Shown here: piece after piece, positions 3 through 60,251 of the stretch | Layout: each line of letters begins with the position of its first letter | Numbering within the stretch: position 1 is the first letter of the stretch | IMG/VR virus record: IMGVR_UViG_3300035698_020241 | Span: 1 to 64,000 of that record | Direction: 5' to 3' (one strand) | Length of the DNA: 64,000 bases | Source of the DNA: a virus | Position numbers and translations under genes: made by a program | The notes under the pieces: generated by a model | Database searches by the model: none | Seen by the model: only the letters and a program-made list of their open reading frames with translations | Told to the model about the DNA's origin: nothing

Positions 3-755
3 GGAACATTAGCAGGTAATAGTGATGACGCTGTACCAACAGAACAGGCCGTTAAGGAATATGTTGACGCTCAGGTAATTGCAGACCATGATACAACGGC
101 AACAGGCACGGAACTAACAACACTAACCGACAATTCTATTGCGAATGCGTTGCATAGGCATAGTGAACTTGTTGCAAGTGATGGTACTCCTGATCCTGCA
201 TTAACCGTTGATGCTAATGGTGTTCTTATATTAACATCATTAGGAACAACCCAAACATCAGGAGGTCTTTATACAGGAACAACCGATCCTACTGACACAA
301 CAAGATTAAATTATGACGGTTACTTTTATGCAACTAGATGTTATAATCCAATATATAACGATATAGCAGATTTCCAGGATGTAATTGATGAAATAATACC
401 TGGTAAGTGTTACTATGATACATATGAAGGAGCTAAAATATGCACTGAAAGATGTCAAATGGCAGTTATGGGAATTGCCTCAGATACTTTTGGTCTAAGT
501 GTTGGTAGTGATAGTAATGAAGAAAAAATTCCAGTAGCGATTTCAGGATGGGTATTAGCTTATGTAGATAATATGTATCCTTGTGGAACACCATTAACAA
601 ATGATGAAAATGGACATCTAACTGAAATGAATAAAGAAGAAAAATGTTTATATCCAGAAAGATTGATAGCAACATATAAAAAATCTGAAAATTCTAAAAA
701 TTGGGGACCTGAAAATATAGATGTTAATGGTCGTCATTGGGTTAAGGTAAAATAG
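3..755 (+). CDS. Tail fibre/tailspike-like protein, C-terminal part (5'-truncated by window edge)
   Basis: The frame is open from position 3 (GTLAGNSDDAVPTEQAVKEYVD...), so the ORF-track start at 150 is internal. The VPTEQAVKEYVD motif is typical of phage fibre proteins. The C-terminus (DIADFQD...GIASDTFG...IPVAISGWV) resembles Peptidase_G2-type intramolecular chaperone domains. Confidence 0.6.
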   Translation, partial: GTLAGNSDDAVPTEQAVKEYVDAQVIADHDTTATGTELTTLTDNSIANALHRHSELVASDGTPDPALTVDANGVLILTSLGTTQTSGGLYTGTTDPTDTTRLNYDGYFYATRCYNPIYNDIADFQDVIDEIIPGKCYYDTYEGAKICTERCQMAVMGIASDTFGLSVGSDSNEEKIPVAISGWVLAYVDNMYPCGTPLTNDENGHLTEMNKEEKCLYPERLIATYKKSENSKNWGPENIDVNGRHWVKVK

Positions 756-767
756 GAGATTTTTGAT

Positions 768-3700
768 ATGACTGTAGGTACAGATGAATTTATAGCCGCA
801 ACAGATAAAAACACTTTAAAAGATTTATGTGATACCAAAGCTGTTGAAGCAGGAGTTGATGTAACTGGATTGAGTGATGTATCAGTAGGTGATTTAATAC
901 AAGCCTCATGGCATACAACACTTATTGATAAACATAATGATCTATCAGTTCTATCTAATGAAGAGGATTCTATACAAAGTACTGTATCCTCAGGTGATAT
1001 AATTACAGCAATTTTACACTCTACCATGTTGAGTCAATTGAATTCTATGACCTTTTTATTATTTCATGAATTTGAAAAGGTTGTCTGTGGTAATCATCAT
1101 TCAATGGCTATAGATGCTGACGGTGCAGGATGGTCATGGGGATATAATACTACTGGTCAGTTAGGAGATAATACATTAATTAGTAGGAGTATTCCAGTTT
1201 TAGTAGCTGGAGGTCATACATTTACAAAGATTGCCTGTGGTAATTATCACTCATTAGGAGTTGATTCTGCTGGTTCAGGATGGGCATGGGGAAATAATTT
1301 TTACGGGAATTTAGGAGATAATACAACTACTATTAAAAGTACTCCTGTTTCGGTTCATGGAGACCATATTTTTACAGAGATTGCAGGAGGAAATTCTTGT
1401 TCATTAGCTATAGATGTTAGTGGTGCAGGATGGGCATGGGGACATAATACTTACGGCCAATTAGGAGATAGCACAACTGTTAGTAAAAGCACTCCAGTTT
1501 CAGTTGTTGGAGGAAATGTATTTGAAAAGGTTGCCTGTGGTGATTATCATTCATTAGGAATTGATTCTGATGGTGCAGGATGGGCATGGGGACGTAATTC
1601 TTCCGGTCAGTTAGGAGATAACACAATAATTAATAAGAGCTCTCCAATTTCAGTTCATGGAGGACATGTATTTATAGAGATTGATTGTGGTGAATACCAT
1701 TCATTAGGAATTGATTCTGCTGGTGCAGGATGGGCATGGGGATATAATACTGTTGGTCAATTAGGAGATAATACAACTATTAATAAAAGCACTCCAATTT
1801 CGATTATTGGAGGTCATGTATTTGAAAATATTACAGGTGGTCGTCGTCATTCATTAGGAGTTGATTCTGCTGGTGCTGCCTGGGCATGGGGACGTAATAC
1901 TTATGGCCAATTAGGAGATGATACAGAAACAGATAGAAGTATTCCGGTTTCGGTTCATGGAGACCATATTTTTACAGAGATTTCAGGAGGGTATTCTCAC
2001 TCATTAGGAGTTGATTCTGCTGGTGCTGCCTGGGCATGGGGATATAATTTTTCTGGTCAGTTAGGAAATAATACAATAATTAATAAAAGTACGCCTGTTT
2101 CGGTACATAAAGGTTATGTGTTTGAAACAATAAATTGTGGTGATTATCATTCATTAGCTATTGATTCTGCTGGTGCAGGATGGGCATGGGGAAATAATAC
2201 TTACGGCCAATTAGGAGATAATACATTAACTAGTAGGAGTACTCCTGTTTCAGTTCATGGAGATCATGTATTTGAAAAAATTACCTGTGGTAGTAGTCAC
2301 TCATTAGGAGTTGATTCTGCTGGTGCTGCCTGGGCATGGGGACGTAATACTTATGGTCAGTTAGGAGATAATACAACTATTAGTAAAAGCACTCCAATTT
2401 CGATTATTGGAGGTCATGTATTTGAAAAGATTGCCTGTGGTGATTTTCATTCATTAGGAGTTGATTCTGCTGGTGCAGGATGGGCATGGGGTCATAATGG
2501 TTACGGACAGTTAGGAAATAATACATTTCTTTATAAGAGTATACCATTTTCAATAGTTGGAGGCCATGTTTTTACAGAGATTGCAGGAGGGTATTCTTAT
2601 TCATTAGGAGTTGATTCTGCTGGTGCAGGATGGGCATGGGGATATAATACTTATGGTCAATTAGGAGATAACACAACTGTTAGTAAAAACTCTCCTGTTT
2701 CTGTTATTGGAGAACATGTATTTGAAAAAATTGCCTGTGGTTATCAACATTCATTAGGAATTGATTCTGCTGGTGCTGCCTGGGCATGGGGACGTAATTC
2801 TTCCGGTCAGTTAGGAGACAATACATTAATTAATAAAAGTACTCCTGTTTCAGTAGTTGGAGAACATGTATTTGAAAAAATTGCTTGTGGTAGTTATAAT
2901 CATTCATTAGGAATTGATTCTGTTGGAGTAGGATGGTCATGGGGTCATAATGATTATGGTCAGTTAGGAGACAATACATTAATTAATAAAAGTATTCCTG
3001 TTTCAGTAATTGGAGAACATGAATTTACAGAGGTTTCAGGAGGGTATTCTCATTCATTAGGAGTTGATTTTGTTGGAGTAGCATGGGCATGGGGACATAA
3101 TACTTACGGCCAATTAGGAGATAATACAACTATTAGTAAGAGTAATCCTGTTTCCGTAATAATAAGAAATGTATTTACTAAAATTTCATCTTTTGGTGAA
3201 AGCACAATAGCCATAGATGTTAATGGTGCAGCATGGGCATGGGGAAATAATACTTACGGCCAATTAGGAGATAGCACAACTGTTAGTAGGAGTACTCCTG
3301 TTTCAGTTCACGGAGATCATGAATTTATAAAGATTAATAGTGGAAAATATCACTCATTAGGAATTGATTCTGACGGTGCAGGATGGGCATGGGGATATAA
3401 TACTACTGGTCAGTTAGGAGATAATACAGAAACAAATAGAAGTATTCCTGTTTTAATATCTGGAAGTCATGAATTTACGGAAATTTCTGGTGGTGATCAT
3501 CACTCATTAGGAATTGATTCTGATGGTGCAGGATGGGCATGGGGACTTAATACTTATGGCCAATTAGGAGATAATACAGAAACAAATAGAAGTATTCCAG
3601 TTTCGGTAGCTGGAGGTCATGAATTTACAGAGATTGCCGGTGGTTCTATTTATTCATTAACTATAGATGTTAGTGGTGGTGCCTGGGCATGGGGACGTAA

Positions 3701-4220
3701 TGATTATGGTCAATTAGGAGATAATACAATAATTAGTAAAAGCACTCCGGTTTCAGTTTACGGAGATCATATATTTAAAACAATAGATTCTGGTTATTAT
3801 CATTCATTAGGAGTTGATTCTGCTGGTGCAGGATGGACATGGGGATGGAACGATTTTGGTCAATTAGGAGATAACACAACTACTAGTAGGAGTACTCCAA
3901 TTTCGGTAGTTGGAGGACATGTATTTGAAAATATTACCTGTGGTTATCGTCATTCATTAGGAGTTGATTCTGCTGGTGCTGCCTGGGCATGGGGACGTAA
4001 TACTTATGGCCAATTAGGAGATAATACAGAAACAAATAGAAGTATTCCGGTTTCGGTACATAGAGGTTATGTAGTTGAAACAATAGATTGTGGTGATTTT
4101 CATTCATTAGCTATAGATTCTGTTGGAGTAGGATGGTCATGGGGTCATAATGATTATGGTCAGTTAGGAGACAATACATTAATTAATAAAAGTATTCCTG
4201 TTTCAGTACATAAAAATTAA
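768..4220 (+). CDS. RCC1/BLIP-II repeat beta-propeller protein (21 repeats)
   Basis: About 100-aa N-terminal domain followed by 21 repeats of about 50 aa, consensus F.kI.cG..HSLgiDsaGagWAWG.N..GQLGDNT...kStPvSv.g.h. Confidence 0.93.
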   Translation: MTVGTDEFIAATDKNTLKDLCDTKAVEAGVDVTGLSDVSVGDLIQASWHTTLIDKHNDLSVLSNEEDSIQSTVSSGDIITAILHSTMLSQLNSMTFLLFHEFEKVVCGNHHSMAIDADGAGWSWGYNTTGQLGDNTLISRSIPVLVAGGHTFTKIACGNYHSLGVDSAGSGWAWGNNFYGNLGDNTTTIKSTPVSVHGDHIFTEIAGGNSCSLAIDVSGAGWAWGHNTYGQLGDSTTVSKSTPVSVVGGNVFEKVACGDYHSLGIDSDGAGWAWGRNSSGQLGDNTIINKSSPISVHGGHVFIEIDCGEYHSLGIDSAGAGWAWGYNTVGQLGDNTTINKSTPISIIGGHVFENITGGRRHSLGVDSAGAAWAWGRNTYGQLGDDTETDRSIPVSVHGDHIFTEISGGYSHSLGVDSAGAAWAWGYNFSGQLGNNTIINKSTPVSVHKGYVFETINCGDYHSLAIDSAGAGWAWGNNTYGQLGDNTLTSRSTPVSVHGDHVFEKITCGSSHSLGVDSAGAAWAWGRNTYGQLGDNTTISKSTPISIIGGHVFEKIACGDFHSLGVDSAGAGWAWGHNGYGQLGNNTFLYKSIPFSIVGGHVFTEIAGGYSYSLGVDSAGAGWAWGYNTYGQLGDNTTVSKNSPVSVIGEHVFEKIACGYQHSLGIDSAGAAWAWGRNSSGQLGDNTLINKSTPVSVVGEHVFEKIACGSYNHSLGIDSVGVGWSWGHNDYGQLGDNTLINKSIPVSVIGEHEFTEVSGGYSHSLGVDFVGVAWAWGHNTYGQLGDNTTISKSNPVSVIIRNVFTKISSFGESTIAIDVNGAAWAWGNNTYGQLGDSTTVSRSTPVSVHGDHEFIKINSGKYHSLGIDSDGAGWAWGYNTTGQLGDNTETNRSIPVLISGSHEFTEISGGDHHSLGIDSDGAGWAWGLNTYGQLGDNTETNRSIPVSVAGGHEFTEIAGGSIYSLTIDVSGGAWAWGRNDYGQLGDNTIISKSTPVSVYGDHIFKTIDSGYYHSLGVDSAGAGWTWGWNDFGQLGDNTTTSRSTPISVVGGHVFENITCGYRHSLGVDSAGAAWAWGRNTYGQLGDNTETNRSIPVSVHRGYVVETIDCGDFHSLAIDSVGVGWSWGHNDYGQLGDNTLINKSIPVSVHKN
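1071..4217 (+). repeat. Tandem array of 21 coding repeats of about 150 bp
   Basis: Visible DNA periodicity. 2916-3008 is identical to 4116-4208 (93 nt), and 1845-1919 is identical to 3948-4022 (75 nt). Confidence 0.95.
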
Positions 4221-4394
4221 GGAAAAAAGTATTGATGTTATAGTAAAAACAACTAATAATTATGAATTTATGATTATTTCTGGATATTCAATATATACTT
4301 ATAATGCTGATGATTTTCTGGTAAGTTTAAAGGAATTTCTTACTAATCCAAAAAATGATACTATAACTTTATTAAAAATAAATTGCTGAATTTG

Positions 4395-4423
4395 TTTACA
4401 AATATAAAATTTTAATGTATAAT
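4395..4423 (+). promoter_or_regulatory. Sigma70-type early promoter
   Basis: TTTACA-N17-TATAAT with TG immediately upstream of the -10 box. Confidence 0.85.
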
Positions 4424-11909: not shown

Positions 11910-12923
11910 ATGATATGTAAATATCCTAATTGCAATAATGAAACACATACTTATAAAGGAAAGAAAACACCAGATTTATTCTGTAAAAAACACTGTACAA
12001 TTCAGAATCTAATTACTTTTCAAATTAGATTTGGAGAGAAAGAAGGAAAAAATAGATATTCTAAAATGTTAGAAAAAAGACGGAGATCAAAAACTCTTGA
12101 AGGTATGGTTGAAAAATATGGAGAAATTAATGGTAAAAAGAGATGGGAAGATTATTGTTATAAGCAAGGAAAAAGAAATACTCTTGAAGGTCAGATTGAA
12201 TATTGGGGTAAAGAATTAGGAATTAAAAAATATAAAGAACGATGTTATAATTGTGGTAAACCAGTAAGAATAGATTATTTTCTTGAAAAAACAAATGGAA
12301 ATAGAGAATTAGCAGAACAAATGTTGAAAGAAAGGCAAGCAACATTCTCAAAAGAAAAATGTATAGAAAAACATGGGAAAATAAAAGGATTAAAAGTTTG
12401 GAAAGATAGACAAGATAGATGGCAAAAAACTTTAAAATCTAAATCACCTGAGGAAATAGAAAGGATAAACAAAAAGAAAGCCATAACAAAAGAAAATCTT
12501 ATAAAAATATATGGTGAAGTAATTGGTAAACAAAAACACAATGAATGGTTGAAAAAAATAACAAACTGTTTACCAAATTCTATTTCAAAAGCATCCAAAG
12601 AATTTTTTATAGATATAGAAAAAGAATTATCTATAAAAATATTAAAAGAACAAGTAATTGGAAATTATATTGTTGACGGAAAATTCAATAATATTATAAT
12701 AGAATTTTATGGTGATTATTGGCATTGTAACCCAAAAATATATAAAGATGATTATTATCATGCTAAATTAAAAATGTTTGCTAAACAAAAATGGAAAATA
12801 GATAGAAAAAGAGAAAAAACATTAAAAGAGTTAGGATATGATGTATTAGTTGTATGGGAAAATAATTGGACGAATAATAAGGAGAATATTATAAAAAAAT
12901 GTTGTGTGAAATTGGTAAAATAG
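11910..12923 (+). mobile_element. Free-standing Vsr-like homing endonuclease inserted between the split-intein halves
   Basis: Repeated EKYGE..GKKRW-type motifs. C-terminal YIVDG...IIEFYGDYWH...DRKRE..LKELGYDVLVVWE. Lies in a different frame from both gp46 pieces. Confidence 0.8.
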
Positions 12924-15337
12924 TAAAATTATACAAAGAACATCCAGAATATATTGGTAAAGTTTTTGTTGATACTCCTTATGGTAAAAAAAGAATACTT
13001 TATGCTGACATTGTTGAAAAAAACACAGAAGTATATAAACTGAAAACAGATATATATGAACTTATAGGTTCACCACAACATAGAGTAGAATGTAATAACA
13101 AGTGGATGTATTTAAAAGATATTTCCAATGGTGATTTTGTTAGCACAATAAATGGTAAAAAGAAAGTATTGTTATGTCAAAAAGAAAATGATTTATATGA
13201 TTTATATGATATACAAGTTGAAGATGTAGAACAATATTATTCTAATGGAATACTTTCTCATAATTCATCTTTCCTTGAAACTATACCTTTTGCACTATTT
13301 GGTAAAGTTCATAAGGATATAAAAAAAGACCAAATAGTTAATTGGAAAAATAGAAAAGGTTGTGAGGTTCACCTAACATTTACGAAAGGTGAATCAGAAT
13401 ATAGAGTATATAGAGGTATCAAACCTGATAAGTTTGAAATATATAAAGACGAAGTATTGGTTGATAAGCCGGCACATGTCAAGGATTATCAGTTAATACT
13501 TGATGGTATTATAGGCTTAAATTACAACGTCTTCATGAGCCTTGTCCATTCTAATATCAATTCATCTGCACCAATTCTGGCGATGAAAAAACCCGATAAA
13601 CGAAAATTTATAGAGAAATCGTTTGGTCTTGAGTTATATACAAAACTTCATGAGATTTGTAATGAAAAACTCAAGAAAGGTAATGAGAAGATAAAAGAAA
13701 TGGAATTCTCTACACTTAAAAACAATGAGGCTGTAAAATTAGCCGAGGAAAGAGTCGCATCTATTAATAGAAAATTAAAGGAAATGGGATCATCAGTAAT
13801 TGAATTAAAAGATGCAGAAGAAAAACTGAAGGAACTTATTGATGGTGATGAAGACTGGGACGAACAACTTGATGCTGCAAGTACTGAACTTAAAATAGTT
13901 GATGAGGCTGATTCACATCATTCATGGCTTGTAAAAGCTATAGAAGGTAAAATGGCTCTTACAACTCAAAAGATAAAAATGATGATTAACCAAGTTCAAA
14001 GTTTAAAATCTGATATAAGTAAAACAGAAGACATAGAGACCAAAAAAAGGAAGATAACAGCCATTCTGAAATTATGGGGTGATGAAGATATAATATCAGA
14101 AAAAATAGGGTTAACAAAAGCTCTTATCAATGACTATAATATAAGAATAGATCATCATTTAGAAAATACACAAAAACTACAAATTGATGTTACAAGTTGT
14201 AAAAAGAATGTCAAAAAGATACAACACCAATGGGGTGTATTGAAAATAGATAAAAAATGTCCAACATGTAATACGAATGTTGAAGGTACTGACATTCTAA
14301 AGAACTTGGAAAGAGATATGAAAGAAGATCAGGATTTTGCGGATAGACAAACTGAACAAATTAAAAAAATAGTTGCAGATGTTGATGAAATAAGAAAAAG
14401 TCATAAAACGAATAGTGGACTTTTGAAAGAGTTGGAAGATGTAAAGATGCAATACTTATTACTTGAAAAAGAGGTAACAAGTAGTAATTATGATGAACTT
14501 ATAGAAAGATTAGATATATTAAATAATAAAATAACTCGTACACGGTCTGTTGCTGATAAGTTGAGGACTAAAAGGGATGAAATTGATGCTTATAGGGAGA
14601 AGTCTATAAGTAGAATTGAGATTTTGAAGGAAGAGAAAAATGATTTTCTTAATAAGATCAATAATATATCAGATGCTCAAAAACAAGTAGATAAATTAGA
14701 TGAGAAGGTATCACTTGAAGTAGATAACAAATCAACATATGTTACACTGGTTAAAAAAGATGAGAAAAATATAAAAAGGTTACTATCTGAAAATAGAAGT
14801 TTTATTGCAAAGGTTAGTAAGTTGTCCGATCTCAAGGATTATATTAATTTTATAAAAACATGTTGCGGTGATGATAAGGTAAAACAATATGCAATAAGTT
14901 CAATAATGCCGTATCTTAACAAACAAACGAACCATTATTTATCAGATGTAGGCCATAATTTCTGGGTAAAACTAGATAAATGGTTAGAAGCCCGGATAGA
15001 AGGACCTGGTATTATTAATGGTAGTTATGGTTCATTAAGTGGAGGTGAAGGACGAGTTATAGATTTATCACTTCAATTTGCCTTTCTTGATATTGCGAGA
15101 CTTAGAGCAGGTGTATTTCCATCTATATTAATTTTTGATGAAATACTTGACAGTAGTATTGATGTTCAAGGGTTACAAAAAATTATAGATATCGTTAAAA
15201 TTAAACAGAAAGAAGATAATTCACAAGTATTCATAATTAGTCATAGGCAAGAAATAGATGAACTTGAGGTTGATGATGTTTATTTTGTTACAAAAAGTGA
15301 AGGATATTCAAGTATTGAAATCAAGGAATCTATATAA
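12899..15337 (+). CDS. gp46: Split-intein C-fragment (122 aa, 12899-13264) fused to gp46 C-extein
   Basis: Block B GSPQH, block F LYDIQVEDVEQYYSNG, block G LSHN|S. Then SSFLETIPFALFGK, coiled coil, zinc hook CPTC, signature LSGGE, Walker B IFDE, ISH. Confidence 0.92.
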   Translation: MLCEIGKIVKLYKEHPEYIGKVFVDTPYGKKRILYADIVEKNTEVYKLKTDIYELIGSPQHRVECNNKWMYLKDISNGDFVSTINGKKKVLLCQKENDLYDLYDIQVEDVEQYYSNGILSHNSSFLETIPFALFGKVHKDIKKDQIVNWKNRKGCEVHLTFTKGESEYRVYRGIKPDKFEIYKDEVLVDKPAHVKDYQLILDGIIGLNYNVFMSLVHSNINSSAPILAMKKPDKRKFIEKSFGLELYTKLHEICNEKLKKGNEKIKEMEFSTLKNNEAVKLAEERVASINRKLKEMGSSVIELKDAEEKLKELIDGDEDWDEQLDAASTELKIVDEADSHHSWLVKAIEGKMALTTQKIKMMINQVQSLKSDISKTEDIETKKRKITAILKLWGDEDIISEKIGLTKALINDYNIRIDHHLENTQKLQIDVTSCKKNVKKIQHQWGVLKIDKKCPTCNTNVEGTDILKNLERDMKEDQDFADRQTEQIKKIVADVDEIRKSHKTNSGLLKELEDVKMQYLLLEKEVTSSNYDELIERLDILNNKITRTRSVADKLRTKRDEIDAYREKSISRIEILKEEKNDFLNKINNISDAQKQVDKLDEKVSLEVDNKSTYVTLVKKDEKNIKRLLSENRSFIAKVSKLSDLKDYINFIKTCCGDDKVKQYAISSIMPYLNKQTNHYLSDVGHNFWVKLDKWLEARIEGPGIINGSYGSLSGGEGRVIDLSLQFAFLDIARLRAGVFPSILIFDEILDSSIDVQGLQKIIDIVKIKQKEDNSQVFIISHRQEIDELEVDDVYFVTKSEGYSSIEIKESI

Positions 15338-16090
15338 GTGAAAAACTTTGGTATAATATATAAGGTAACTAATATTCTTAATGGTAAAATTTATATAGGA
15401 CAGACTATTAGAGGTTTAGAAGTAAGGGGGCAATGTCATATATCTGAATCAAAAAATGGTAATACATATTTTAATAGAGCTTTAAGAAAATATTGTCCGG
15501 AAAACTTTGAATGGGAAGTTATTGAAGAATGTTATTCAAAGGAAGATTTAGATTTAGCCGAAGAATGGTATATTAGATATTATAACACTTTCGGATCAAA
15601 TGGATATAATTTGACGTTTGGTGGAGAGGGAACTATAGGTTGGAAACCTTCAGAAGAGACAAGGAAAAAGATTAGTAAATCCATGTGTGGTGAGAATAAT
15701 CCTAACTATGGTAAGGAACGTTCTGAAGAGTATAGAAAAAAATTAAGTGATACATTAAAAGGTAGAAAACACTCAGAAGGACATAAGAGAAAGTTAAGTG
15801 AAGTTAATAAAGGTAAAAAACTTTCAGAAGAGACAAGGAAAAAGATGGGCGAATCGCGTAAAGGTGAAAAAAATGTAAGAGCAAAGAAGAGGGTTGTTAT
15901 AAGACCCGATGGTAGAAAATATTTTTGTCACGGAACATTTACTAAACTTTGTAAAGAATTTAGTAAAGAGTTTAAAAAGAATATGTTAAGATTTTTGATT
16001 GATGTTAATAAGTCCGGGAAAGAAATAAATGGTTGGGTGGTTTTTGATGTTGATGATACACCTACAAATGAAAATATTATCATATATTAG
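15338..16090 (+). mobile_element. GIY-YIG homing endonuclease with NUMOD3-like repeats
   Basis: GIIY...IYIGQT, FNRALRKY, GYNLTFGGEG, HSEETRKK-type repeats. Abuts the gp46 stop. Confidence 0.88.
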
Positions 16091-22670: not shown

Positions 22671-23322
22671 TAAGAACCCGAAAGTATTAGTAGTAACACC
22701 TTTATTAAAAGGTCATAAAATTTCAAAAGATACAAAGAAAACAATTAAAAGAAATACAACTCCCATTGTATGGATAGCCAGTGAAGGAAATAATAATATA
22801 CCTATAAACATACAAAATGGTATCAATTTTTGGAAAAAAGAAGGTAACGAATTACCACCTTATCTTTTACCATTGGATAATGATATAATTTTAGGTCGTC
22901 ATATAATAGATAGACTTGTAAAGAAATTGGATAGGACTGGTGATGAAGTTGGATATGCATATGCATCATTTGAATATAAGGGTCATATAAATAAAAGATT
23001 CCCAGCAGTACCTTTTGAAGCACAAAATTTAGTTAATGCTAATTATATTAGTAGTAATTCTTTGATTAAGATAGGTCATTTAATTGCGGTAGGCGGTATG
23101 GTTACCGATGAGAAATACAAGCGACTTCTTGACTATTGCATGTGGTTAAGATTTCTATATTTTGGCGTGGTTGGTGTACCTTGTCCAGAGGCTTCATTTG
23201 TAGCCGTTTCATCTAAAGATGATATATCAGCAGGCACATCAGAAGATTACCAGTTGAAATATCAAAGAGTTAAAAAGGATTTTATTGAACCAATTATAGA
23301 GAAATACAGCGCCAATTCTTAG
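22651..23322 (+). CDS. GT-A (GT2-like) glycosyltransferase
   Basis: VLVVTPL, YLLPLDNDIIL (DxD), NYISSNSLIK, LLDYCMWLRF. Confidence 0.72.
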   Translation: MRVIRSDKNPKVLVVTPLLKGHKISKDTKKTIKRNTTPIVWIASEGNNNIPINIQNGINFWKKEGNELPPYLLPLDNDIILGRHIIDRLVKKLDRTGDEVGYAYASFEYKGHINKRFPAVPFEAQNLVNANYISSNSLIKIGHLIAVGGMVTDEKYKRLLDYCMWLRFLYFGVVGVPCPEASFVAVSSKDDISAGTSEDYQLKYQRVKKDFIEPIIEKYSANS

Positions 23323-24001
23323 ATTTACCATTTCTGAGCATACATTGGTAAGATATACTTCTTCGTTTGCAAAATTCTTGAATTGTTGAACTATTAACAA
23401 TGAACTTTTTACGAAGGGGAGATGTAAATTCATAATATCTTCTACCTTTTTCACTAATTTTCTTTTTTGCATCGTCAGTATGCGTTTTACCAAAGAATGG
23501 ATGATTTTTACCAGATAATTTTTTACTAATCAATTCCCTATGTTTTTCATCTTTCCACATCTTCTTAGATGCTTTACTTATTTTTCTTTTCGCATCATCT
23601 GTATGTGTTTTACCTTTCATATGGTGGTTATTTGATACTGTAAAACTTATTTTCTTTCTAACTTCCGGTCTCGTTGAAGGATTTATAAATCCTTCAGGTC
23701 TTTTATATCCCAACACACCTTCTCCACCAAATGTTAAATTATATCCACCATTTTTACAATATGTATTATAATATCTAATGTACCATTCTTCTGCTAAATC
23801 TAATTCTTCTTTGGAATTACATTCTTCTATAATTTCCCATTCAAAATTTTCCTTGCCATATTTTCTCAAAGAATTATGAAAATATGTTGATGATGTCTTA
23901 GAAAGTCTTATATGTGTAGCCTTTCTATATTCAAATTTTTGTGTTGTTTGGCCTATATAGGACTTTCCAGTTATAATATTTTTGGATTTATAAATTAACA
24001 T
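23294..24001 (-). mobile_element. GIY-YIG homing endonuclease with NUMOD3 repeats
   Basis: LIY...SYIGQT, FHNSLRKYG, GYNLTFGGEG, KTHTDDAK repeats. Sits at the convergence of the two gene blocks. Confidence 0.88.
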
Positions 24002-48641: not shown

Positions 48642-49448
48642 TTACATATTTTCAAGTCGTTCACACTTGAAACCTTTATACTGTTTTATTCTTCCACTAA
48701 CTATATGTTGAAAATTACTTTGATATAATTTTATACCAGTATTTTCTTCATAATCTCTACAAAAACTAGTTAAACAATTTGTAAAAATTTCTTTACCATC
48801 TGGATGAATAATTTTCCACTTAATATTTTTCAAACCTTTATTATAATTAGGATTATTCTCTCCAATCTTACCATACATAGGATTACTTTTCCCTTTATTA
48901 TGTATTTTTCCTTTCTCACTCAAAATTATTTTCGTTTCAATAGAATGTTTTTTCCCATACATACCATTATTTTTACCACTAAATTTTTTTCTATATGAAC
49001 CACTCTCATAAAGAACTTTCATTTTTTTCTGGAAATCTTCATCCTGTAATAATTTCTTACGTGCTTTACTAATATTTTTCCTATGTTCTTTTGAAAATTT
49101 TCTACCTATTAATGAATTTGATAATTTATTTCTCTGTTCCTTACTGGCCTTCCAACCATAATGTCCCTCACCACCCCAAGTCATATTATATCCATTTTCC
49201 GATATATGACTGTGATATTGTTTAATGTAATGAAACTCCATCTCATCCAATTCTTCTTTGGAATTACATTCTTCAACTATAGTCCATTCAAAAACATCTT
49301 CATTATATTTTTTAAGAGCCCTATGAAAATAAAAGTTAGTATTCTTAGATTTCCAATAATGTTCCTTTATTCTATTATCTAAATCAAATTTTGTTTGTCC
49401 TATATAACATTTTGAATTTATTTTATTTTTAACTTTATAAATTATCAT
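48642..49448 (-). mobile_element. GIY-YIG homing endonuclease next to gene 32
   Basis: IIY...CYIGQT, FHRALKKY, GYNMTWGGEG, NUMOD3-like repeats. Confidence 0.88.
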
Positions 49449-56433: not shown

Positions 56434-56718
56434 CTATCTCCTTTCAGATTTTAAATCAATTACTCCTGCATCCATAATCCTTTTTGCTATGGTTGGTTTA
56501 TCTGCAAGCATTCTAAGGAACTTTCTATAATCCTCTGATGCCTCTGTTTTTGTATATCTTGTTTCTATACCCAATTTTTCAACTGTGATATAATCTTGTC
56601 CTATTTTACAAAAAACACATTCTTTATCGTCTTCTTTCCCTGGTGATACTATTTGTCCTGGTATTACCCACATGAAATCAGGTACAAAAAAGTGTTTACA
56701 TTTTACACATTGTGACAT
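56434..56718 (-). CDS. Zinc-finger hypothetical protein
   Basis: CVKC...CVFC. Confidence 0.55.
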   Translation of the reverse strand: MSQCVKCKHFFVPDFMWVIPGQIVSPGKEDDKECVFCKIGQDYITVEKLGIETRYTKTEASEDYRKFLRMLADKPTIAKRIMDAGVIDLKSERR

Positions 56719-56727
56719 TACTCCTCC

Positions 56728-57135
56728 TTATAACAGAGTTAAATCTCCTGTTATAACATCTATTTTTTTATTATTTCCTGGTCCCACAGCCAAGCATGTA
56801 ATGGTAGGCACACCTTTAAACTCTGTAAGTCCTGCATCTTTTATAAGTGCATGCGGCACTTCATGAAATAAACATTCATCCCTAAGTGTGAGTAATTCCA
56901 ACTCACTTTTCACATATACAACTATCTTTGTATATCTATCTCTTAACCATAACCTCATTGGATCATCATAATCCATTGTAAGTTTCAAATGCATTTGGCC
57001 TTCAAAATTTGAACATCGCATTCTATCAAGCATAACCCTCATAGAGGCATGTGCCACTTGAGCACACATTTTACCTTTCCTCATATTAAGGTCCTTTCTT
57101 ACAACTATAACTTGTTTTACATTGCCATCTTCCAT
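56728..57135 (-). CDS. pth2: Peptidyl-tRNA hydrolase 2 (Pth2)
   Basis: KQVIVVRKDLNMRKGKMCAQVAHAS...KIVV...IKDAGLTEF..PTITCLAVGP. Confidence 0.92.
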   Translation of the reverse strand: MEDGNVKQVIVVRKDLNMRKGKMCAQVAHASMRVMLDRMRCSNFEGQMHLKLTMDYDDPMRLWLRDRYTKIVVYVKSELELLTLRDECLFHEVPHALIKDAGLTEFKGVPTITCLAVGPGNNKKIDVITGDLTLL

Positions 57136-57171
57136 ATTTATCCTTTTTTACCAATTATAAATACTATAAAA

Positions 57172-57960
57172 TTAAGTATCTAATATCACCATAAGTTGTT
57201 CGTATGATATAATATCAATACCATATTTCCTCGCCTTTTTGGACTTACCACTCTGACTATCAGGATCATCAGTTACCAACATATTAACATCTTTACTTAT
57301 ACCCTTTACGGTTCCACCAAGAGATTCTATTTTCTTTTTAATAGCAGGTCTACTCATGTTTCCCTTACCTGTAAGAGTGAATTTCTTACCCTGTAATTTC
57401 TGTCCTACCTCAAACTTCAAACCTTGTTCAAGAAGAAATGTATATAATGGATAAAATTTACCACGATTTATAACAATGGATTCTGCTATAACCTCACCTA
57501 TACCATCTATATCCTCAAAGAAATCTTCATCATCTGAGAAAAATTGTAACATCATATCTTTAGGTGATATATCAGAATATGTATCACATATTGACTTACC
57601 AACCGATCTACCAACATTAGGCATTCCAAATGCTGATATCAGTTTATTTGGAGTAGTTCGTAATGTTCCTTGAATCTCATTAACGATCTGTTCTCCTCGT
57701 TTCATTCCGAAACCTTCTATCGTTGCAATTTCAAACTCATCAATCTCATACGCTTTCTGTATAGTGTTAATATTTAATTTCTTGAGGGTTTTTTCAGTTA
57801 TATACTCTGCTCCAAGGCGTACCAAAAAGTGTTCAACTTCTTTATAGGCTTTAGCAAGACAATCTACATTATTACATACCATATCAACACCTCTTGGAAC
57901 AGCACGGCCTCCACATGATGGACAAAATTCCGGAACATAATTAAAACCATTCATTTTCAT
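57172..57960 (-). CDS. ligA: NAD-dependent DNA ligase C-terminal half (Zn finger, HhH, BRCT)
   Basis: CPSCG...C.NVDC, IEGFGMKRG, FGMPNVG, IDGIGEV, BRCT FTLTG...GGTV...LVT...KSKKARKYGI.II. Confidence 0.88.
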   Translation of the reverse strand: MKMNGFNYVPEFCPSCGGRAVPRGVDMVCNNVDCLAKAYKEVEHFLVRLGAEYITEKTLKKLNINTIQKAYEIDEFEIATIEGFGMKRGEQIVNEIQGTLRTTPNKLISAFGMPNVGRSVGKSICDTYSDISPKDMMLQFFSDDEDFFEDIDGIGEVIAESIVINRGKFYPLYTFLLEQGLKFEVGQKLQGKKFTLTGKGNMSRPAIKKKIESLGGTVKGISKDVNMLVTDDPDSQSGKSKKARKYGIDIISYEQLMVILDT

Positions 57961-58091
57961 ATCCTTTCACACATGTATCCCTTATTATTAGCATTACATT
58001 TATGGCCTTTTATTCTATCATTTAATGTTCTTATTGTTTGTCCTACGTAAGACTTTCCTGTAATTTTGTTTATTGATTTATATATTATCAT
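57957..58091 (-). pseudogene. 44-aa remnant of a GIY-YIG homing endonuclease between the ligase halves
   Basis: MIIYKSINKITGKSYVGQTIRTLNDRIKGHKCNANNKGYMCERI*. Matches the N-termini of the three intact GIY-YIG genes in this window. Confidence 0.85.
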
Positions 58092-59125
58092 TTATAAACC
58101 TTTGAAATGAAAGGTATTACATCACCAGATCTCTGGATATCAATCATTGATCCTTTACATATTTTATTCTCTTGGATGTATTTTGCATTATGACCTGTGG
58201 CCCTTTGTATACTAACACCGTTTATTATAATAGTTTTAACAATAACTGTTGGAATTATTCTTCCAGTTCGTGAGGTATTCCATTCAACATCTATAACCTC
58301 TGTTTTAACACCTTTTTCATTTACTTTGAACGCTATTTTATTTTCAGGATAAAGAACATCCTCTCTTACATAATTGTCAGGTGTAATAACAAGACCATCA
58401 ATATCTTTCAGGTGAGATTTACACATCGTCAAGAAGTCTGTTAAAGATTCTATAACATCTGGAGAATTTGACATATGCATAATATTAGGAGTTTTCAATC
58501 CCATACTTTGCATCAATGTGAATTTGCTTATTTCACTATCATGTTCAACAGAACCCCCATCAAGTATCTCATAGAAGTATGGAACTATATATTTTGCATT
58601 CTTTATACCATCTTTATTCAGTATACCTGCAGTGCCATTTCTACGAGTTTTAAATCCAAGTTTCTTATGTGTGTCTCCTATCAACATAGCTTCACATCTG
58701 AAGGAAAAGTTATGTTTAAGATTTTTTATAACAGGACAGAACATCTTTGCCTTATCTGTTATATCACTACCCTGATAGCCATCACCTCTGGTTGTAGCAG
58801 AAATAACCTTACCGTCTTTAAATCCATATGTAACCATGAAACTTACACCATCAAGTTTTTCTGATATACAATGTGGTCCTGGGTGTTTCTCAATCCACTT
58901 TTCTATTGTATCCGTCTTTTTTTTATGAAGGCTGCCGAGTACAAAAGGTAGGTCTACCTTTTTACCAGAAATAGGAGCACCAATATCATCAAAGTAAGGA
59001 TGGTCAGGTCTTATAGCCCTTGCCTTATCTTTCAAATCATCATAATCGGCGTCTGTTATTTCAACATCACCGTTATAATAGGCATCATCGTGTTCCTTTA
59101 AGGTTCTTATCATCAAATCAAACAT
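58088..59125 (-). CDS. ligA: NAD-dependent DNA ligase N-terminal half (adenylation plus OB domains)
   Basis: AYYNG...DADYD, EKLDG (motif I), TRGDG, IDGLVI, IAFK, SRTGRIIP, ATGHN, RSGDVIP, then stop. Confidence 0.92.
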   Translation of the reverse strand: MFDLMIRTLKEHDDAYYNGDVEITDADYDDLKDKARAIRPDHPYFDDIGAPISGKKVDLPFVLGSLHKKKTDTIEKWIEKHPGPHCISEKLDGVSFMVTYGFKDGKVISATTRGDGYQGSDITDKAKMFCPVIKNLKHNFSFRCEAMLIGDTHKKLGFKTRRNGTAGILNKDGIKNAKYIVPYFYEILDGGSVEHDSEISKFTLMQSMGLKTPNIMHMSNSPDVIESLTDFLTMCKSHLKDIDGLVITPDNYVREDVLYPENKIAFKVNEKGVKTEVIDVEWNTSRTGRIIPTVIVKTIIINGVSIQRATGHNAKYIQENKICKGSMIDIQRSGDVIPFISKVYK

Positions 59126-59134
59126 CTTATCTCC

Positions 59135-59476
59135 TTAGTGTAACCCATCTACAAGTCCTAATGAACTTGCAATAATCAACCAACCTTGTATATCAGTTAA
59201 ACCTTCACTAACAAACCATTCAACAGCTTTATATGGAAAATCCCTTAAAAATTCATCTTTCAAAATTTTATAATTCTGAGAATTTATTAACTCTAATATT
59301 GTTATACCGTTATCATCGGCGATCATTTTATTTAATTGTTTCTTATTTGACAACCCTTTAAATTTTTCACCAAATTTTTCACCGATTCTATCCGATTCTT
59401 CATTTGTCATGTTATTAAGAGTAACAATAGCCGCTCTTAATTCAAAAACATTATAAGGTATTTCCATCTTTTCCAT
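59135..59476 (-). CDS. Hypothetical protein
   Basis: AGGAG RBS. Confidence 0.55.
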   Translation of the reverse strand: MEKMEIPYNVFELRAAIVTLNNMTNEESDRIGEKFGEKFKGLSNKKQLNKMIADDNGITILELINSQNYKILKDEFLRDFPYKAVEWFVSEGLTDIQGWLIIASSLGLVDGLH

Positions 59477-59492
59477 ATTTTTATCTCTCCTA

Positions 59493-60251
59493 TTAAACTA
59501 TATCTATATCAGAGTTTCTATCTTTTCCATCTTTTCCATCCTTTTCATCACCATATACTTCTCTTTTATGATATACATCTTCAAGTTCTTTACAAAGAAC
59601 CCTTTTTATTTTTTTTAAGTCTCCTACTTTCATATCATCCAGTTGATCATCATACATAAGTCTTTTTATAGTTGAGTCTACAACTGCTTGTCTACCCTTT
59701 GACTCACCTAATTCACCTACTGCAGAAAGAGAACGAACCGTGGCTTCCACAGAGTCACATATCATCAAAACGGCTGCCTCTATACTTTGAGGAGGACTAC
59801 ACTTATATCTGAATAAATCCTCTGGAATATCAGGGTTTATATCTATTGCCTTTTTATAAAAAAATTGTAGTACAGTACTACCATGATGCTGTGCGATTAT
59901 ATTCATCACATCCATTGGCATATCTTTTATATCCAAAAGCATAACAACACTATCACCAACATGTCTTGTAAGTATCTGATAAGATAATATAGGATCAATG
60001 TTTTCATGAATATTTTTCCCACCATTCTGATTCTCACTGAAAGCCTCAGGATAATTTATTTTACCTATATCATGGTAATGTGCCGCAACAAGTAAAGTAT
60101 CAACATCAAGTCCTAGTTTCAAAGCAACACTTTCACAAAAACTAGCAACATTCTTACAATGTTTAAAGGTACCAGGTGCTACCTCTCTAAATTTTTCAAG
60201 TAAGGGATACTTTGAATCCAAAAATTTTTTAATATCTACCTTGTCTGGCAT
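59493..60251 (-). CDS. Stand-alone HD-domain phosphohydrolase of the PgpH/YqfF (7TM-HDIG) family, lacking the membrane region
   Basis: PLLEKFREVAPGTFKH, HYHDIGK..P..FSENQ, H, IIAQHHGST.L.FFYKKA, FRY...PQS.EAAVLMICDSVEATVRSL, DDQLD. Confidence 0.85.
   Translation of the reverse strand: MPDKVDIKKFLDSKYPLLEKFREVAPGTFKHCKNVASFCESVALKLGLDVDTLLVAAHYHDIGKINYPEAFSENQNGGKNIHENIDPILSYQILTRHVGDSVVMLLDIKDMPMDVMNIIAQHHGSTVLQFFYKKAIDINPDIPEDLFRYKCSPPQSIEAAVLMICDSVEATVRSLSAVGELGESKGRQAVVDSTIKRLMYDDQLDDMKVGDLKKIKRVLCKELEDVYHKREVYGDEKDGKDGKDRNSDIDIV

Follow-up and report, generated by a model that had tools for sequence, protein, structure and literature searches.

How does a phage come to encode its DNA ligase in two genes, and can the two products still make one enzyme? 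The question is raised by a 64,000-nucleotide stretch of AT-rich viral DNA, positions 1-64,000 of the 126-kb IMG/VR record IMGVR_UViG_3300035698_020241 (estimated completeness 53%), which we call the window. In this window an NAD+-dependent ligase (LigA) is divided between two open reading frames (ORFs), and a 44-codon mini-ORF fills the space between them. We consider it probable that a GIY-YIG endonuclease gene inserted into the ligase gene and later decayed, and that the separately translated halves form a two-subunit ligase. In the following, relative loci are designated L0xx or L1xx and relative proteins P00xx.

Anatomy of the split ligase locus

The locus consists of three ORFs which lie head to tail on the same strand, each in a different frame:

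58088..59125, minus strand: ligase N-half, 345 aa, with the Ia-type NAD+ motif region, the adenylation domain with KxDG (K90) and the OB fold
57957..58091, minus strand: mini-ORF of 44 codons, GIY-YIG homing-endonuclease relic
57172..57960, minus strand: ligase C-half, 262 aa from its first start codon (ATG-1) or 260 aa from its second (ATG-2, 57954), with a four-Cys zinc finger, an HhH region and a BRCT domain

The N-half ends with ...SGDVIPFISKVYK and a TGA stop, 7 residues past the conserved GDVIP motif. The C-half begins with MKMNGFNYVPEFCPSCGG, 12 residues ahead of CPSC. Pfam matched the N-half to DNA_ligase_aden (PF01653, E 2e-14) and to DNA_ligase_OB (PF03120, E 2e-17, profile positions 1-71 of 79), and the C-half to BRCT (PF00533, E 6e-12); HhH matches in the C-half were below threshold, and its zinc finger consists of C13, C16, C29 and C34. 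The gap between the two halves measures 127 nt and is ORF throughout. At the first junction the mini-ORF ATG (58091-58089) overlaps the N-half TGA (58090-58088), and at the second the mini-ORF TGA (57959-57957) overlaps the ATG of the C-half (57960-57958), each overlap being a 4-nt ATGA.

A preliminary description of this DNA, made from its letters, had stated that LigA breaks after the OB domain and resumes at the zinc finger without intein residues, that an ATGA overlap is found at both junctions, and that the 44-codon ORF in the gap resembles the N-termini of the GIY-YIG genes of the window. Pfam and the alignments bear out the first statement, the coordinates the second, and sequence identities of 47-57%, described below, the third.

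Completeness and conservation of the two halves

The two ORFs between them carry the domains of an NAD+-dependent ligase. In the N-half, the Ia-type NAD+ motif (YY..G...SD.EYD) and the KxDG adenylation lysine are present, and 26 out of 26 invariant columns of the N-half alignment (A1) are kept, including K90-x-D92-G93, Y16, D25, Y28 and D29. This half aligns to residues 13-52 and 110-389 of E. coli LigA (2OWO/4GLX). The C-half was compared with 60 relatives and retains every one of the 39 columns conserved to 90% or more. The linker from VIP to CPxC spans 14-21 residues in 22 intact relatives, and the window halves supply 7 + 12 = 19. Because this value lies within the normal range, no ligase residue has been lost, and intein blocks would find no room. 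When separate trees were built for the N-half and the C-half, both paired with the same intact 599-aa protein, P0007 (support 98 and 95), with ordinary terminal branch lengths of 0.54 and 0.58, respectively. At the sequence level, both halves look functional.

Three other ways of accounting for an interrupted reading frame were considered and rejected. An intein does not fit the normal linker length, and no Pfam Hint or intein match was found at the window junction, in contrast to the related locus L116 (see below), which has one. Since the window junction has no intein residues, the halves could not be rejoined by trans-splicing. For a group I intron, there was no Rfam match at E ≤ 1 in positions 56500-59800; the gap is 127 nt, all of it ORF, and its predicted fold has a z of 0.10. 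As for an alternative genetic code, TGA ends 16 of the 92 ORFs of the window, and table 11 gives normal long ORFs. Reading through both TGA stops could not join the pieces in any case, because the three ORFs occupy three frames.

The mini-ORF is a GIY-YIG relic

The mini-ORF matched the Pfam GIY-YIG profile (E 3.8e-5, 24.3 bits versus a cut-off of 22.6, profile positions 3-39 of 78). It retains the first half of the catalytic domain, with IIY, YVG, R26 and H30, and shares 47-57% identity with the N-termini of the three intact GIY-YIG/NUMOD3 genes in the window:

48642-49448, minus strand: intact GIY-YIG/NUMOD3 gene
23294-24001, minus strand: intact GIY-YIG/NUMOD3 gene
15338-16090, plus strand: intact GIY-YIG/NUMOD3 gene

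These intact copies match profile positions 2-78 plus NUMOD3. By Pfam, the mini-ORF contains neither the catalytic Glu/Asn region of the second half nor NUMOD3 or another DNA-binding domain. Because the second catalytic half and the DNA-binding region are absent, it should be incapable of endonuclease activity; judged by its domain content, it is a catalytically dead relic and not a functional GIY-YIG homing endonuclease. Compared with the Seg-type free-standing GIY-YIG/NUMOD3 endonucleases (T4 SegA-G and the three of the window itself), the relic shares the GIY, YIG, Arg and His motifs in its N-terminal 39 residues but lacks the second catalytic half and the NUMOD3 DNA-binding region.

A fourth GIY-YIG match was found further along the record (G000 66310-66522, minus strand). 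All four GIY-YIG genes or matches appear to lie between genes, not inside any, and one of the intact genes (15338-16090) directly follows an SMC/SbcC-like ATPase gene (12899-15337). Inspection of the neighbours of the three intact genes revealed no sign of another gene in pieces.

The same hinge is broken in relatives

In two very large protein libraries, the nearest relatives of the ligase were 45-55% identical and most were contiguous proteins of about 600 aa; the best match among 5.8 billion proteins reached 53% identity. A blastn search against phages gave no match, tblastn against phages gave at most 33% identity, and IMG/VR, searched with a single protein, gave at most 35%. Among 255 relatives, 186 were full-length and 33 (about 13%) ended 3-12 residues past G[DE]VIP, which is the same hinge as in the window. 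DNA context was recovered for 160 loci, and in each the sequence 3' of the N-half was checked. The hinge gaps of split relatives contained the following:

L012/L100, L020/L112, L021 and L116: full-length GIY-YIG/NUMOD gene on the opposite strand
L122: frameshifted GIY-YIG gene
L008/L098: 71-aa C-terminal GIY-YIG stump
L009: other cargo, treble-clef zinc-finger ORFs
L105: other cargo, ORF with a ribosomal L7/L12 C-terminal-like domain
L013/L015/L103/L104: only 67 nt between the matched halves

Because these gaps hold full-length, frameshifted or truncated GIY-YIG sequences, other cargo, or nothing, a history of insertion followed by decay is supported. The arrangement is that of a gene in pieces: the ligase is contiguous in relatives, GIY-YIG genes occupy the hinge in L012, L020, L021, L116 and L122, and a relic occupies it in the window, where the N-terminal stump on the ligase strand represents a further stage. 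The preliminary description had proposed that ligA was broken at a flexible linker by an endonuclease gene, which decayed afterwards, and had suggested a comparison with related phages. That comparison produced intact ligA genes and ligA genes with a full GIY-YIG gene at the hinge, on the opposite strand; the proposal fits well with both the intact relatives and the hinge GIY-YIG genes in all stages of decay.

The split state was then placed on trees. On a FastTree phylogeny of 209 N-regions, 23 changes were needed. On an IQ-TREE quick tree of 85 rows, 12 changes were needed, 9 of them forced by supported branches. By these counts, the hinge has been broken, or mended by recombination, many times. 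As placed by these trees, the split of the window is independent of the other sampled splits. A case of such a change within one metagenome is offered by L091, whose ligase is uninterrupted, and L116, which is about 80% identical to L091 yet cut.

L116 (positions 142-4407 of that locus, contig Ga0307992_1004527) is the closest split relative of the window, and its ligase is in three pieces. A split intein follows directly after the catalytic KLDG; its N part starts with CLEENT... and its C part ends with ...VHN, followed by Cys. The Pfam Intein_splicing and Hint matches to it are sub-threshold, and a Vsr/DUF559-like endonuclease gene lies between the two intein-split pieces. L116 additionally carries the hinge split with an antisense GIY-YIG gene. 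It shares with the window (57172-60251) the gene order HD-domain protein, ligase, small zinc-ribbon protein and HNH protein; in the window a 113-aa ORF (59135-59476) sits between the HD gene and the ligase.

Two of the gaps with other cargo deserve description. In L009 (4736-5381) there are two antisense ORFs with weak matches to a treble-clef zinc finger (DUF4379), possibly a different, broken type of endonuclease. In L105 (4369-4944) the gap contains a same-strand ORF matching the ribosomal protein L7/L12 C-terminal domain (E 1.2e-8) and no endonuclease gene.

Comparison with known split systems

A split NAD+ ligase as such is already known from T5 and its relatives. The T5 ligA and ligB genes (T5.116/T5.117) break at the same hinge and are separated by a 202-nt spacer with two annotated promoters. 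Subunits A and B of Proteus phage Stubb also break there, with a NADAR-domain gene in the gap. Structures 9HU3 and 9I5I of the PDB contain both chains of a T5-like ligase (339 and 248 aa), whose end points match those of the window halves. A search of the literature library at hand found no paper on a two-subunit or heterodimeric phage NAD+ ligase or on these two PDB entries. Because T5-like phages share this two-gene layout and a two-chain structure of their enzyme has been deposited, a heterodimeric ligase is plausible for the window, and by this analogy a two-subunit enzyme is the likely product of the locus.

The similarity to the T5-type LigA/LigB of Demerecviridae is considerable. Subunit A ends 7-8 residues past VIP, at OB profile position 71 of 79, as does the window N-half; subunit B, like the window C-half, begins shortly ahead of the CPxC zinc finger; and in both systems the genes are adjacent on the same strand without intein or intron. 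However, the T5-type proteins are only about 25-30% identical to those of the window (24-25% for the C-half versus T5-like subunit B). The gaps differ as well, being a promoter-bearing spacer in T5 and a NADAR gene in Stubb, whereas the window gap consists entirely of the GIY-YIG stump, joined to both halves by ATGA overlaps. A shared origin with the ligA/ligB pair of Demerecviridae was rejected, both window halves pairing with intact P0007; the two systems are analogous and not orthologous. Since its nearest relatives are intact ligases, the window split arose independently of the T5-type split.

The gene in the Stubb gap (L086:2180-2797; MH830339.1 61053-61670) is annotated as hypothetical and matches NADAR in Pfam with E 1.6e-31. 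With an overlap of 8 nt at the end of subunit A, it is a gene related to NAD/ADP-ribose lodged inside an NAD+-dependent ligase.

As precedent, the preliminary description had cited nrdA and mobE of Aeromonas phage Aeh1; it had overlooked the known split ligase of T5. The Aeh1 nrdA-a/mobE/nrdA-b locus is a case of "genes in pieces" in which function of the split NrdA has been demonstrated (Friedrich et al. 2007, reviewed in PMC2988022); T4 gene 39/60, with its mobA, and gene 43 of phage 25, which is likewise split, belong here too. In Aeh1, as in the window, a free-standing homing-endonuclease gene splits an essential gene of DNA metabolism with neither intron nor intein, and the pieces must reassemble. 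The differences are that another host gene is split, that MobE is an HNH enzyme whereas the window has a GIY-YIG gene decayed to 44 codons, and that the function of the split enzyme has been shown for Aeh1, while the window ligase is known from its genes. A further class, described by Dassa et al. (2009, PMC2677866), consists of fractured phage DNA-metabolism genes, DNA ligase included, in which split inteins are combined with a free-standing endonuclease gene of GIY-YIG or Vsr-like type. L116 has exactly that arrangement at its KLDG site, whereas the window junction has neither intein residues nor room for them.

Translation of the halves and the role of the stump

How the C-half is translated bears on what the stump may be doing. 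The phage makes strong use of Shine-Dalgarno (SD) sequences, and motifs resembling one precede 69 of the 92 window ORFs, typically AAGGAG at 5-9 nt upstream. At the ligase locus we found:

59131..59136, minus strand: AAGGAG, SD site of the N-half, 5 nt upstream of its ATG (upstream 20-mer ...TAAGGAGATAAG)
58099..58103, minus strand: AAAGG, weak SD-like motif 7 nt upstream of the mini-ORF ATG, inside the last codons of the N-half
57962..57967, minus strand: AAAGGA, SD site of the C-half inside the last codons of the mini-ORF, 1 nt before ATG-1 (57960) and 7 nt before ATG-2 (57954)

ATG-2 is the better-supported start of the C-half because AAAGGA stands 7 nt upstream of it, a spacing that further genes of the phage share. 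No RNA structure masking this site was predicted at the junction, where the fold was no better than that of shuffled sequences (z = 0.10). With its own AAAGGA and no masking structure, the C-half should be able to initiate alone. No promoter or terminator was found on the minus strand in the gap, and for this reason the three ORFs probably form one transcript. The mini-ORF may well be translated, and it is feasible that ribosomes, once past its stop codon, reinitiate at either ATG of the C-half. The K-V codons that form the AAAGG ahead of the mini-ORF are also present in intact relatives, and a function of this motif for the mini-ORF is something we can only infer.

The preliminary description had gone further and proposed that the stump was kept to pass ribosomes between the halves. 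By this explanation ribosomes that terminate on the N-half reinitiate, read the 44 codons and reinitiate at the C-half ATG; the stump would be selected as a relay, the subunits would be made at 1:1 stoichiometry and the C-half would depend on the N-half. ATGA overlaps at both junctions, a feature of only 5 among 90 pairs of same-strand neighbours in the window, speak for such a relay, as do a mini-ORF that is still open and recognisable, the weak AAAGG ahead of its ATG and a gap without a promoter. However, the C-half has its own unmasked AAAGGA before ATG-2, at the spacing usual in this phage. The first ATGA was likely inherited from the intact endonuclease gene, and the second needs just one stump frame in three, the one reading TGA. 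Overlaps of this kind are not rare in the window (5 of 90 pairs, with 1-nt overlaps in 10 of 90 more), and a recent deletion would be expected to leave a 44-codon frame open. Where split relatives have antisense inserts, or plain or promoter-bearing spacers, there is no relay. Given the SD site of the C-half itself and relatives that manage without a relay, this part of the preliminary description is not supported in the form given, and we regard a relay as unlikely, though the strongest of the competing explanations. Co-option of the stump, with selection keeping its frame open and overlapping and so making production of the C-subunit follow that of the N-subunit, is doubtful to the same degree. 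A relic ORF that exactly bridges both halves is the sole unusual detail of the arrangement.

Is the ligase dead, recoded or misassembled?

The insertion might instead have inactivated the gene, leaving a dead or dying ligase whose halves are neutral remnants while the phage uses the host LigA or another ligase. Bacterial hosts possess an essential LigA, the case for activity of the halves is built from sequence, and the record is about 53% complete. Against such decay, no stop or frameshift occurs across 345 and 262 codons, all columns that are invariant or at least 90% conserved are kept, and branch lengths are not inflated. A strong SD site precedes the N-half. Moreover, the halves are intact in many independent split lineages, and a two-chain enzyme has been solved from T5-like phages. 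We therefore consider a dead ligase quite improbable.

Recoding could in principle yield one polypeptide, either by bypassing from the AAA before the N-half UGA to the AAA that is codon 2 of the C-half, or by two successive -1 frameshifts through the stump. The preliminary description had pointed to the two AAA codons, both of which are present, and had already ranked bypassing as the less likely course. Take-off and landing codons match, the stop comes right after take-off, the predicted fold has a weak A-U hairpin across the take-off site, and the fused linker would have 17 aa, normal against 14-21. But the hop would cover a gap of about 130 nt versus 50 nt in T4 gene 60, AAA is among the commonest codons of this AT-rich phage, the fold is no better than that of shuffled sequence (z = 0.10) and there is no slippery heptamer at the junctions. 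Relatives with antisense inserts of 0.4-2 kb are unable to bypass and keep both halves, and the T5-type enzyme consists of two chains. In agreement with the earlier ranking, we give recoding very little chance.

An artefact, in which errors or a chimeric join broke a contiguous ligA on this metagenome-derived contig that has no close relative for comparison, is hardly credible, as the gene is interrupted not by an indel but by 127 nt with significant homology to GIY-YIG, the insert falls at a hinge where many unrelated assemblies split alike, and the protein database contains an identical N-half on a contig of 2,440 nt, whose assembly may or may not have been independent.

A proposed insertion and decay, and a probable two-subunit ligase

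The reading that we favour, endonuclease insertion and decay leaving a two-subunit ligase, can be laid out as a sequence of events. A free-standing GIY-YIG gene, oriented like its target, would have invaded the variable stretch that links OB fold and zinc finger in a phage NAD+-dependent ligase, so that a single gene of about 600 codons became two. A deletion may afterwards have stripped the endonuclease gene past about codon 40, leaving the dead 44-codon stump. The three ORFs would be co-transcribed, and the N-half (Ia, adenylation and OB) and C-half (zinc finger, HhH and BRCT) made as separate polypeptides, which would associate on nicked DNA without a covalent link and form a two-subunit ligase, as proposed here by analogy with T5-type LigA/LigB. 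The C-half would be made mainly from its own AAAGGA at ATG-2; termination-reinitiation through the stump may add coupling but would not be needed.

Several points weigh against this account. The databases searched contained no relative closer than about 55% identity and no ancestor with a full endonuclease gene on the same strand. Every relative with a GIY-YIG gene at the hinge has it on the opposite strand, so that the same-strand ancestor is deduced from the stump of the window. No ATP-dependent ligase (PF01068) was found in the 126-kb record, which, at about 53% completeness, leaves room for a second ligase elsewhere. This phage is known from its genes; from these we infer heterodimer formation, ligase activity and the route of translation.

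Meaning of the split

The window adds an independent case of a two-subunit NAD+ ligase beyond the T5 family; it leaves existing knowledge on ligases and homing endonucleases unchanged. Together with its relatives, it displays the life cycle of a homing endonuclease at one hinge, from invasion through frameshift and truncation from either end to loss with a permanent split, and in these proteins the stretch from OB fold to zinc finger stands out as a place where LigA is broken repeatedly and tolerates the break. For annotation, such halves should not be labelled pseudogenes, and the break point may also aid the design of split ligases. If the stump were indeed co-opted, a decayed selfish gene would have become a stoichiometry device for a two-subunit ligase of its own making.

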